This document shows positions 95 through 6,839 of a stretch of DNA of 11,460 nucleotides, piece by piece; positions within the stretch are counted from its first letter, which is position 1, and every line of letters begins with the position of its first letter. A model generated the notes under the pieces. It was not told where the DNA came from, made no database searches, and was given only the letters and a program-made list of their open reading frames with translations. The position numbers and the translations under genes were made by a program. Origin of the DNA: Pseudomonadota bacterium (GTDB lineage: Bacteria > Bdellovibrionota > FAC87 > UBA2466); NCBI GenBank assembly GCA_043718025.1, contig JAYSWN010000089.1, positions 1 through 11,460 on the forward strand, in the 5' to 3' direction.

Positions 95-1516
95 TTACTT
101 TTTACCTAAAGATGAAGATTCAAAGACGAAGGGGTAATCTACCGGCACGATCACGCCGCCCTGGGGTTTGGGAAAGGTCCAGCTTTTTACTTCGGAGAGA
201 ATGCAATCTTTCACGGCTTTGTTCTGAAGGGTGTCTTCGAGAAAACTTGAAGAGAGCACATTGCCTTTGGGGTCGATTTCAAAGTGGACGGTCACTTTGC
301 CGGAGAGCTGGGGAATAAAATTGAGCTGCCGTTCGTAGCAAAGGCGAATGCGGTCTTTGCGTTGTCGCACCACGTGCTCGATCACTTCGCGATCTAAACC
401 GCCGTTCAAATTGGTGGATTCCCGAGCCCGGGCCGGTGAGACTTTGAGTGAGCTGCCTAAAGCGCCGCCGAGTCCCGATTTGCCTAAACCGCCGAACCCG
501 CCTTCGCCTTTTCCCTCGGGCCGTCCGATTCCCACGCTGTTGCCGCCGGCGCCGTTGCGCGCGCCTTCTAGAGAAAAGCCGCCCGTACCCTTTTGTTCAA
601 TTGGGGCGATGTAGGCCCCGGCCGGTGGAGCCTTGTCGGAACCCCCGGCGTCGGTCTTGGTATCGATAGAAACTACGCCTTCCACTACGCTCTGAATTGA
701 GTTGCTATCGATCGTGGCTAAATCGTCGTCGGCCGACTGTGCTTTGGTGGTGGCGCGCATCGAGGGAACGCCGGTTTTTTGATTGGCCTTCTTTTGCGGC
801 AACGCCAGGGTGGCTTTACCGGGAGCGCCTTTTTGGGCGCCGCCGTCGGCGGTTTTCTTTTGTCCCATGGCGGCCGGCAAGGCTTTTGGCACGGCCTTAT
901 TTGCGGAAACGATGCCGGTCTCTTTTTTTGCGGCGGGGGGAACCATGGCCGGTTCCCGTTTCTTTTCGGGCAGAATGGTAACCACCCGTTCGGGCTCTAA
1001 GGTTTTCGGCAGTTCGAGCGGAATTTTATTTTGTAGCATTAGCAAAAAGGGGGCGGAGAGTAGCAAAAGGAGAACAAAGAAGGCGCCGCGGCTTTTGTCG
1101 AGGCGAATTGACTTGGGTAATCGCTTGGCGGGCTTTACCCAGTCTAGATAAAAGGTGACGTAGCCAATCGTGAGCTCGGCCGTTTCAGGCTCGGAGAGCG
1201 AAAACTCGAAGATGCCTTCTTTGTTGGCTTTTGAAAATTGGGCGCGCGATTTTCCGCTCACGGAAAATACGCCTTGTTGCAGGCGCACGTGACCCTTAAC
1301 CACGTCGTGTAGGCGAATGGTGGCGCTACGGTTTGGGTTGACCTTGATCAGATCTAGTTTTGGCAGAGTAAAATCGCTACCGAGGTTTAAGTGAAAGGTG
1401 TTCTCTTTGCCCTTACCTACTGAAATCACTTCGTTGGGGCCGCACAAAAGGGTGTCGTAAAGCACGTCGCCCCACGAAACCAACAGGCGCAACGATGTAT
1501 TTGGGTTGGTGGCCAT
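95..1516 (-). CDS. GltG-like inner-membrane protein with AgmX/PglI C-terminal (TonB_C-like) domain, 473 aa
   Basis: N-terminal beta-rich cytoplasmic domain, one TM helix (AFFVLLLLLSAPFLLML), long Pro/Lys/Gly-rich linker, then GGLDREVIEHVVRQRKDRIRLCYERQL..LSGKVTVHFEIDPKGNV..CILSEVKSWTFPKPQGGVIVPVDYPFVF. That tail matches the AgmX/PglI pattern including its two Cys. It lies directly downstream of a gltF-like gene, as in gltDEFG. Confidence 0.9.
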   Translation of the reverse strand: MATNPNTSLRLLVSWGDVLYDTLLCGPNEVISVGKGKENTFHLNLGSDFTLPKLDLIKVNPNRSATIRLHDVVKGHVRLQQGVFSVSGKSRAQFSKANKEGIFEFSLSEPETAELTIGYVTFYLDWVKPAKRLPKSIRLDKSRGAFFVLLLLLSAPFLLMLQNKIPLELPKTLEPERVVTILPEKKREPAMVPPAAKKETGIVSANKAVPKALPAAMGQKKTADGGAQKGAPGKATLALPQKKANQKTGVPSMRATTKAQSADDDLATIDSNSIQSVVEGVVSIDTKTDAGGSDKAPPAGAYIAPIEQKGTGGFSLEGARNGAGGNSVGIGRPEGKGEGGFGGLGKSGLGGALGSSLKVSPARARESTNLNGGLDREVIEHVVRQRKDRIRLCYERQLNFIPQLSGKVTVHFEIDPKGNVLSSSFLEDTLQNKAVKDCILSEVKSWTFPKPQGGVIVPVDYPFVFESSSLGKK

Positions 1517-1539
1517 GTGTCTGATTAGCTACGATGTTC

Positions 1540-6223: not shown

Positions 6224-6839
6224 AGTCTCGAATCATCCGGGCGTGGGCGGGGTTTACCCTGGTGAATTGAATGCCGAAGCCTGGTTTGCCCTCTTCGGTT
6301 TTTCCTTCACGGATGACCACTCCGGTCATCGTTAGCACTTTGCTTAACGATCGCGAGGTGAAAATGAATTTAACGTCGGTACCGATGGCCAGGGGCACGT
6401 CCGAAACAATGAAGAGGCCGCCTTCGGCGATGTCGTAAACCTCGTAGATTTCGCTGCCGTTGATGGCGATCGAGCCGTCGATTCGTGATCGTCCGTGCCG
6501 TCGTACGCCGCGTACTTCGACCGCTTTTTTAGAATCGGCGGGCTTTGGCGGTGCCGTTGGCGAAACTATGGCTTCGGTCTGGGTGGGGTTGGGAATAGAA
6601 GCCACGATGGTGCCGGCTCCGGGTGAGCCGGGAATGGGGGCATCGGGGTAGGGCGGCAGCATTTCTGAAAAGGGCATCATGTCGGCGATGCGGGCCCAGC
6701 TGTCTAGCCCTTGGGTCCAAACAAAATCCCAGTACTCGAGGCGCTTTTGTTGAATCATCACCACCACCACTTCGGTAGAGAGTGGACCAAAGTTCTCTCC
6801 TTGAAGGTGAACAAACCAAGTTCGTATTAAGTTGGTCAT
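6198..6839 (-). CDS. GYF_2 (DUF4339) + PilZ domain protein, probable c-di-GMP receptor, 213 aa
   Basis: N-terminal WFVHLQGENFGPLS..L..FVWTQGLDSW fits GYF_2. After a Pro-rich linker, the PilZ domain has RRHGR (RxxxR), DIAEGG (D/N-x-S/A-x-x-G) and GVVIR..GFGIQF. It overlaps the TPR gene start by 26 nt. Confidence 0.9.
   Translation of the reverse strand: MTNLIRTWFVHLQGENFGPLSTEVVVVMIQQKRLEYWDFVWTQGLDSWARIADMMPFSEMLPPYPDAPIPGSPGAGTIVASIPNPTQTEAIVSPTAPPKPADSKKAVEVRGVRRHGRSRIDGSIAINGSEIYEVYDIAEGGLFIVSDVPLAIGTDVKFIFTSRSLSKVLTMTGVVIREGKTEEGKPGFGIQFTRVNPAHARMIRDYVQNHQDK

Follow-up and report, generated by a model that had tools for sequence, protein, structure and literature searches.

Introduction

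A barrel module in the outer membrane is regarded as necessary for Agl-Glt machines to reach the cell surface, and the PilZ proteins YcgR and MotI act as brakes or clutches of MotA-type motors. The closest described systems to the one considered here are the Agl-Glt machinery of Myxococcus xanthus, composed of GltA-K and AglRQS, the Agl-Nfs system of the same organism, which has a use other than motility (PMC3858216), and the glt clusters of Bdellovibrio bacteriovorus, which are expressed differently from one another (PMC2797640) and of which the aglR mutants Bd1481 and Bd1483 are poorer in biofilm predation (PMC2277423). In an AlphaFold model of the Myxococcus machine, GltB contributes a strand that inserts between two strands of GltC, and a helix late in GltC contacts an early helix of GltD (PMC11761067). 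For Bdellovibrio, Hobley et al. reported that one of four gliding operons has the PilZ gene Bd1482 at its 5' end and named the product of this gene as a candidate target of DgcA (PMC3271064). Here we describe a stretch of 11,460 nucleotides (nt) from the bdellovibrionotan contig JAYSWN010000089.1 (the window), whose minus strand carries at 95..6839 four genes of a putative Agl-Glt variant. Its scaffold components appear to be fused into one chain, and its motor seems to be encoded together with an immunoglobulin (Ig)-like protein beyond an assembly break.

Results

A fused scaffold protein

The window is the entire contig C222 of its genome (G000, 4.14 Mb, 92% complete). Re-derived coordinates give four open reading frames on the minus strand, with an overlap of 26 nt followed by gaps of 22 and 23 nt, just as the first-pass annotation had stated, and this tight spacing is retained in relatives. 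The genes encode a GYF-PilZ protein (6198..6839; 213 amino acids, aa), a giant exported TPR scaffold with an N-terminal signal-like segment (1847..6223; 1458 aa), a small exported protein resembling GltF, also known as CglF (1540..1824; 94 aa), and a GltG (95..1516; 473 aa). Their proposed Glt homology was borne out by profile comparison, in which GltG and CglF/GltF models match and the giant TPR protein aligns to GltC and GltD.

How is this scaffold composed? We compared profiles of 18 cassette proteins with those of 19 GltC, 13 GltD and 14 GltE proteins from canonical clusters by hhalign, where reversed-sequence controls reached at most 2.3%. For GltD we took as reference the gene that separates gltC from gltE in each of 13 canonical Bdellovibrionota clusters, its name resting on position and size, as an NCBIfam scan matched no GltD model. 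Residues 17-457 (4853..6175) align to GltC 20-444 of 491 with a probability (P) of 99.7% over 394 columns, and residues 434-1285 (2369..4924) to GltD 71-1015 of 1057 with P 100% over 817 columns. Residues 1314-1438 (1910..2284) align to GltE 73-202 of 288, the weakest of the three matches: P is 91.9% with the segment as query, against 6.1% for GltC and 1.1% for GltD, and 68.7% with the whole protein, and the segment spans under half of GltE and has no lipoprotein signal. The Myxococcus GltC model NF033756 matches within window positions 5123-5839 (E 5.5e-4) and in 2 of 11 orthologues, with a best E of 4.7e-9. By single-sequence BLASTP, GltD is found at E 1e-16 and GltC weakly at E 5e-6; profiles were needed for GltC detection, a single protein of the second gene order described below (type B) reaching only 18%. 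A further GltC match, of the middle segment of the fusion (92%, 168 columns), was discarded as a generic TPR cross-match. On this profile evidence, GltC and GltD sequences and, less certainly, part of GltE follow one another collinearly in the 1458-aa protein, which is thus a fusion. Its earlier assignment to GltD alone was correct as to GltD homology and overlooked the GltC and probable partial GltE sequences joined to it.

Across 17 related loci the fusion remains one uninterrupted reading frame, with lengths of 1413-1580 aa. Its GltC part stops before a C-terminal aromatic motif of the type W-P-F-x-G-E-Y-W-x-D-E, which is present in 19/19 barrel-linked GltC proteins and in 0/18 fusions, so that the last 47 GltC residues are missing. 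By analogy with the Myxococcus model, the lost motif may correspond to the barrel clamp and the fusion joint to the GltC-GltD helix contact. Scaffold-gene fusion recurs in the phylum, because canonical clusters also hold GltD-GltE fusions of 1236-1312 aa (L041, L051, L057-L060, L091).

Two observations may be recorded alongside. An R-x-P-A-S motif lies near aa 1155 of the window's TPR protein and in many tails of the Ig protein described below. Single-copy, frameshift-like breaks, possibly assembly errors, affect fusion, gltG and Ig genes (L064:4104-8447, L078:8971-10389 and L107:9157-10738).

The 94-aa protein matches the GltF model NF033764 at E 4e-5, below its equivalog cut-off, and GltF from canonical clusters with P 97.5%, which supports its likening to GltF. 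GltG matches NF033760 at E 3e-45, with 155 bits against an equivalog cut-off of 650, over model positions 203-648; since the match begins at position 203, the first FHA domain is missing. Consistently, the protein aligns to 269-742 of an FHA-bearing GltG encoded on contig C126 of the same genome. A membrane-proximal cytoplasmic domain precedes a transmembrane (TM) helix at about aa 145-161 (hydropathy peak at 145), and a linker leads to a TonB-like C-terminal domain (aa 374-466), which matches NF033768 at E 3e-30, above the cut-off.

A linked motor and an Ig-like protein

The window holds no motor genes because it is a whole contig cut by an assembly break. The earlier conclusion that the motor must therefore lie elsewhere does not hold: it is linked, with aglRQS found on contig C210, whose first genes come immediately after the counterpart of the repeat arm that ends C222. 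There follow an Ig gene (C210:96-1712), 73% identical to that of G001, a genome of the same genus, then aglR (1773-2444, 91%) and two ExbD genes reaching to 3411, so that the motor, a MotA_ExbB protein and two ExbD proteins, occupies C210:1773-3411. We infer from synteny that C222 and C210 adjoin.

A search for related loci with the single GltG sequence found none; with a GltG alignment as query it returned 20 loci, two of them from one genome. aglR lies at most 9 kb behind gltG in 15 of the 20, and the other five end at most 1.5 kb from gltG. Where the DNA extends far enough (17 loci), the Ig gene is found between gltG and aglR in 16, encoded on the other strand. We refer to this window-like order as type A. 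Among 301 Bdellovibrionota genomes, the fusion turned up in 17, which belong to six families; nine of the 17 were in the query alignment, two have the fusion split over contigs, and all carriers seen are, to judge by their record titles, metagenome assemblies. Among 46 genomes chosen so as to include all 17, AglR proteins with 63-100% identity are found in exactly the 17 fusion genomes, against at most 43% in the other 29, and 16 of the 17 have the Ig gene. AglRQS is best read, on these sequence comparisons, as the dedicated motor of the fusion cassette. Searches with representatives and for homologues yielded few relatives of full length, and none of the names was informative.

A more distant Ig homologue is present in 12 further genomes, of which 11 were fetched; nine have it in clusters of a second gene order with the same kinds of genes (type B; five complete, four ended by contig ends) and in two it stands alone. 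In type B, one strand encodes GYF-PilZ and the giant TPR protein; the other has Ig, gltF, a gltG that includes the FHA domain, and aglR, Q and S. The type B scaffold is again a GltC-GltD fusion (P 95.7 and 99.2) with the C-terminal motif missing in 7/7, and its tails do not match GltE (0.5%). AglR and GltG of each arrangement form one clade, with type A supports of 96/94 and 100. Derivation from the Bd0828-0838 cluster, nearest by score, is not claimed, as the trees do not resolve it. The family f8, which holds the complete genomes G142 and G138, has only GltD-sized matches (1042-1090 aa) in 34 of 36 genomes, no fusion, and the Ig gene in 0/36.

A profile of 22 GltA/B-type barrels gave no match in the 20 and 16 cassette loci and detected 4/4 control clusters. 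Elsewhere in G000, we noted a canonical barrel-gltC-D-E-F-G cluster that no motor adjoins (C126:4805-13639), a full motor-linked glt cluster with a GYF gene (C169:5264-14994), a minimal aglRQS-gltG unit (C45:53995-57153), an orphan aglRQS (C100:31849-33661), two gltC-barrel pairs (C2:8510-11141 and C51:53054-57006) and a lone barrel (C196:2204-2920).

The Ig protein and a FliA-type promoter

The Ig protein has a signal-like N-terminus by hydropathy. It matches NF047446 in five stretches (212.6 bits, cut-off 40) and the OmpL47 equivalog NF047441 with 198.9 bits, below the cut-off of 250. Its model, with a mean predicted local distance difference test score (pLDDT) of 81, is a tandem beta-sandwich rod that matches tandem Ig and fibronectin type III adhesins without special rank; the best fold match, GhpA (Z 10.2, root-mean-square deviation 7.9), supports only a tandem beta-sandwich rod. 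OmpL47 of Leptospira is described as surface-exposed, abundant and weakly matrix-binding (PMC2935396).

The repeats of the Ig protein start at 130, 222, 316 and 409, and a conserved P-x-V-D-L-F-V tail starts at 501, in register with them. Domain 1 is without such a first (A) strand, and by register the tail is a spare sixth one. Strand donation occurs in some pili. Register and conservation, rather than sequence likeness, suggest that the tail might act in this way; against the A-strand position profile it scores -10.6 to +1.7, where true A strands reach 10-28.

We scored FliA-type sites by a published Bdellovibrio consensus with a maximum of 11 (PMC3627812). A score of at least 8 is reached by 15/15 type A Ig genes versus 380 of 1279 background genes, and one of at least 9 by 7/15 versus 76/1279; the site ends 8 nt before the start in 12/15. 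Four of the start codons were picked from the alignment, and the 15 kin are not independent, so that they count as one conserved site and not as 15 trials. FliA-like patterns of our own making were tuned on the same sequences and were discounted in favour of the published consensus. Upstream of GYF-PilZ, a score of at least 8 is found in 8/17 type A and 6/7 type B loci, and sigma-70 and sigma-54 patterns gave nothing consistent there. The genome has fliA.

The GYF-PilZ protein

GYF-PilZ consists of a GYF_2 domain (aa 8-53; E 3e-8), a proline-rich linker and a PilZ domain (aa 113-208; E 9e-11), both above the Pfam cut-offs. Its model (pLDDT 86) has Foldseek matches to PilZ domains at E about 1e-5, MotI and YcgR among them. 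The only sequence match in the PDB is the GYF domain of GltJ, 7Z3C (E 0.024), and the GltJ (AgmX) model NF033761 matches aa 7-84 only, which is the GYF part (E 0.0066). Hydropathy reveals no hydrophobic or TM segment, and the ZnR-GYF-TM-TonB-like architecture of GltJ is absent. The GYF domain of GltJ binds a proline-rich stretch of AglZ (PMC11135422).

Might the protein sense cyclic di-GMP (c-di-GMP), as its original label of c-di-GMP receptor implied? The c-di-GMP motifs of PilZ domains are RxxxR and D/NxSxxG. The window protein has the first (R113-xxx-R117, RRHGR), whereas the second is altered by Ala for Ser (D136-x-A-xx-G141, DIAEGG). Among 17 type A proteins, four have both motifs, three have an altered second motif and 10 have neither, while both are present in 6/7 type B proteins. 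Another two type A rows, whose starts are broken and in which both motifs can be seen by eye, were excluded from the census. The PilZ fold and RxxxR thus speak for the label, but the altered second motif and the 10 orthologues with neither make it uncertain. G000 holds 6 GGDEF and 13 PilZ matches, evidence for no more than the presence of the signal. At the C-terminal side, 22 of 24 GYF-PilZ proteins retain an F-x-R-x-N-P-x-x-K/R-R segment, which points to a conserved protein partner.

The neighbourhood survey bears out the linkage of GYF-PilZ to glt genes: it directly precedes the fusion in 17/17 loci with upstream DNA. Its supposed position outside the canonical cluster calls for correction, because a PilZ gene heading a Bdellovibrio gliding operon, Bd1482, has been published (PMC3271064). 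In G142 and G138, the cluster that matches Bd1474-1481 in order and size starts with a gene for GYF_2 and PilZ. GYF genes with an intact or decayed PilZ part also flank clusters in L059, L091, L039 and contig C169 of G000.

Other PilZ associations were seen in passing. In family f2 (L030, L031, L033) the cassette lies behind an apparent chemotaxis operon that ends in a small PilZ-like gene, the chemotaxis names resting on the look of the sequences and the PilZ assignment on one weak hit. At C156:2325-6813 of G000 (L013), a stand-alone PilZ gene (117 aa) lies directly 5' of a gene for a GltD-like protein of 1358 aa whose tail resembles GltE, and no other glt genes adjoin this pair.

A dispersed repeat at the contig end

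Directly behind the gltG stop codon, at the contig end, lies an arm of a dispersed repeat (1..97) that holds a hairpin at 53-91, with arms 53-70 and 74-91. The stretch 30-110 folds at -41.1 kcal/mol (z -6.96), a value equalled by 0 of 200 shuffles. The hairpin had been thought to close the operon. Its fold does exceed chance, but it is part of a repeat, not specific to the operon and no terminator: a terminator scan did not list it, and GUGUCC, without a U-run, stands behind the minus-strand stem. Rfam gave two matches, both to a Drosophila family and far below the gathering score, that is, at chance level.

G000 contains eight near-identical (A-type) and eight related (B-type) arms, all at most 162 nt from contig ends and each behind a stop codon. 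Depth on repeat contigs compared with gltG is 95 versus 11 in sequencing run X1 and 84 versus 10.5 in run X2, or 8-9 times higher; X1 and X2, which may be the source of the window DNA, belong to a set of five listed runs, all of DNA and none of RNA. G001 has no repeat at this junction, where the stop codons of gltG and of its convergent neighbour directly meet. Because it exists in many copies, has excess depth and is absent at the G001 junction, the hairpin is, by these comparisons, a recent insertion that broke the assembly. The arms end in T-A-N plus the reverse complement of a stop codon, so that insertion apparently takes place where two convergent genes meet, between their stop codons. 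Besides the window, the repeat-bearing contig ends are those of C1, C13, C21, C22, C88, C111, C113, C119, C157, C168, C169, C198, C201, C210 and C233. The centre of the element is absent from the assembly, and short similar cores are found in 10 of 40 relatives.

Neighbouring genes

Divergent from GYF-PilZ lies a gene with an ACT_7 domain (6982-7371), which is not beside the cassette in related loci. Further on, the minus strand encodes a small ankyrin-like probable lipoprotein (10840-11289) ahead of a 1144-aa protein (7409-10843), which matches nothing in Pfam or NCBIfam, lacks a paralogue and is encoded in DNA of lower GC content. Atlas matches of the latter are weak leads (a hypothetical protein at 0.90; CTXL_M and Endotoxin_N clusters under 0.9), and its gene does not stay beside the cassette in relatives.

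Discussion

From a functional perspective, the four genes first described as a streamlined Glt variant are half of a larger whole: the Glt core is confirmed, but the system has eight genes, including the Ig gene and the motor, and is conserved among uncultured bacteria related to predatory ones. What might it do? We would give even chances to an Agl-Glt variant, probably proton-driven, that pulls an Ig rod instead of barrels and likely serves movement over surfaces or contact with them or with prey. FliA-type control points to a likely use of the machine in the free-swimming phase. From the gene content and co-occurrence observed in these sequences we infer the pulling of the Ig rod, the role of the machine and every binding step that follows. 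As in the Myxococcus model (PMC11761067), AglR5QS would turn in the inner membrane and grip the TM helix and membrane-proximal domain of GltG, the linker and TonB-like domain of GltG would wrap the GltD part, and GltF would tie GltG to the GltC part. The fusion would render the GltC-GltD contact covalent, and the scaffold, having lost its barrel-linked end, might hold the Ig rod as a cargo or an adhesin. GYF-PilZ could act as a cytoplasmic switch in place of the GltJ GYF domain, its c-di-GMP input being kept in some lineages and lost in others.

Several points weigh against this proposal. No contig of the sequencing runs bridges C222 to C210. Genome G007 (98% complete) has the cassette and motor and no detectable Ig gene, so that the Ig protein is dispensable in one lineage, and in G006 and G016 the Ig gene has no glt neighbours. 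Neither a lipoprotein anchor nor a barrel anchor for crossing the outer membrane was found on the Ig protein, which may thus stay periplasmic. GltA/B-type barrels are encoded elsewhere in 45 of the 46 genomes, five of them in G000, and could act in trans; as to the earlier statement that barrels must lie elsewhere, they are absent from all fetched loci and so are perhaps not parts of the machine. The window's own GYF-PilZ gene has a FliA-type score of 6/11, and the regions before aglR score no higher than background. Types A and B are not united by the AglR tree, and a quick GltG tree is undecided. Finally, Luciano et al. found the core complex not sufficient for motility.

Alternatively, the machine may be a device for export or assembly, in which AglRQS-GltG supplies the energy for the Ig protein, or another envelope polymer, to be secreted, folded or put in place, much like Agl-Nfs for the spore coat or TonB-type transport. 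We consider this unlikely, though far from negligible. Agl-Glt and Nfs machines have been portrayed as versatile surface transporters (PMC3858216), and some Bdellovibrio clusters may be transporters as well (PMC13689555); moreover, the barrel and CglB-type adhesin genes that Myxococcus needs for gliding are missing from the loci, gliding in G000 could be supplied by its canonical gltB-C-D-E-F-G genes on C126 and the cluster on C169, and the spare A strand of the Ig tail, in register with a domain 1 devoid of one, would suit an assembled product. Yet no outer-membrane pore is linked to the cluster, the machine persists in G007 without the Ig gene, and the GYF-PilZ switch is common to clusters that are regarded as gliding operons. 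In a more elaborate scheme, which we think quite improbable, the Ig protein would polymerise head to tail by strand donation, AglRQS would assemble or retract the resulting fibre through the fused scaffold, and GYF-PilZ would be the direct c-di-GMP clutch looked for in Bdellovibrio gliding ever since dgcA and Bd1482 were described.

Could the cassette simply be an additional gliding engine, its fused scaffold docking on GltA/B barrels encoded at other loci and the Ig protein serving as an accessory adhesin? The supply of barrels in 45/46 genomes, including the lone barrel on C196 and the GltC-barrel pairs on C2 and C51, would permit this, split glt clusters are normal in Myxococcus (PMC3858216), and D-E fusions of 1236-1312 aa already exist in canonical clusters. 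It is a distinctly unlikely solution all the same, given that the C-terminal GltC motif is missing in 18/18 and 7/7 fusions and kept in 19/19 barrel-linked GltC proteins, and that the other glt clusters examined in the phylum carry their barrel genes in place. That the Ig gene is a mere historical neighbour and the cassette a decaying or redundant paralogue strikes us as hardly credible. Such decay would account for the missing Ig gene in G007, its stand-alone position in G006 and G016, the eroded c-di-GMP motif in 10/17 and the patchy distribution (17/301), but not for long open frames with 52% mean column identity across families, nor for an Ig gene that stays in the cluster in two gene orders and has a conserved promoter.

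If the pulling of an Ig rod is the correct reading, the cassette would illustrate how the same motor may receive a new output, with the scaffold fused, the barrels dropped and the rod recruited. That the fusion connects GltC by its end with the beginning of GltD agrees with the helix contact of the 2025 AlphaFold model, and the cassette, as a small system encoded in a single cluster, would lend itself to structural work. The presence of GYF-PilZ beside several kinds of glt cluster, including the position of Bd1482, makes a c-di-GMP route to the Bdellovibrio gliding motor testable in a cultured species.

How, then, does the cassette relate to known systems? A literature search covering few subscription papers found no report of a GltC-GltD fusion, of an Ig-linked glt cluster or of GYF together with PilZ in Bdellovibrio. 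What appears to be new is the fused scaffold, along with the lack of barrels in the cluster, a motor of its own and the putative Ig rod; a gliding operon headed by a PilZ gene is the least new. By the yardstick of the core complex (Luciano 2011, group B), GltG, GltD, GltC and linked AglRQS are all present, and GltE is represented at most by the weakly matching segment; of the expanded gliding-type set, the cluster has GltF and lacks the GltA and GltB barrels.

With the Agl-Glt and Agl-Nfs systems of Myxococcus, the cassette shares GltC/D/F/G-like and, less surely, GltE-like parts in canonical order, a motor of one MotA/ExbB and two ExbD-type proteins, the TM helix and TonB-like end of GltG, and a GltJ-like GYF domain. 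In contrast to those systems, GltC, GltD and probably part of GltE are in one chain, the first GltG FHA domain, the C-terminal GltC motif and the GltE lipoprotein signal are gone, there is no GltA/B barrel gene, the GYF domain sits on soluble GYF-PilZ rather than on membrane-bound GltJ, and an OmpL47-type Ig gene is added. The gene order gltC-D-E-F-G-aglR-Q-S is also that of Bd0828-0838 (PMC3169522, Table S3), and an operon headed by a PilZ gene, Bd1482, recurs in Bd1473-1483; the GltC and GltD homologues of Bdellovibrio, however, are separate genes and its barrels are in the cluster (PMC3169522). Like OmpL47 of Leptospira (LIC13050), the Ig protein has five NF047446 domains, a putative signal peptide and a predicted tandem beta-sandwich fold, whereas it is longer, tied to a motor cluster and below the equivalog cut-off, its domain 1 seems to be without an A strand, and its tail has a conserved extra strand. 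As for YcgR and MotI, GYF-PilZ resembles them in its PilZ fold and in that its gene accompanies those of a motor from the ion-driven Mot/Tol/Exb family, and differs from them in its N-terminal GYF domain and in that its C-terminal segment, not the nucleotide motif, is best conserved.

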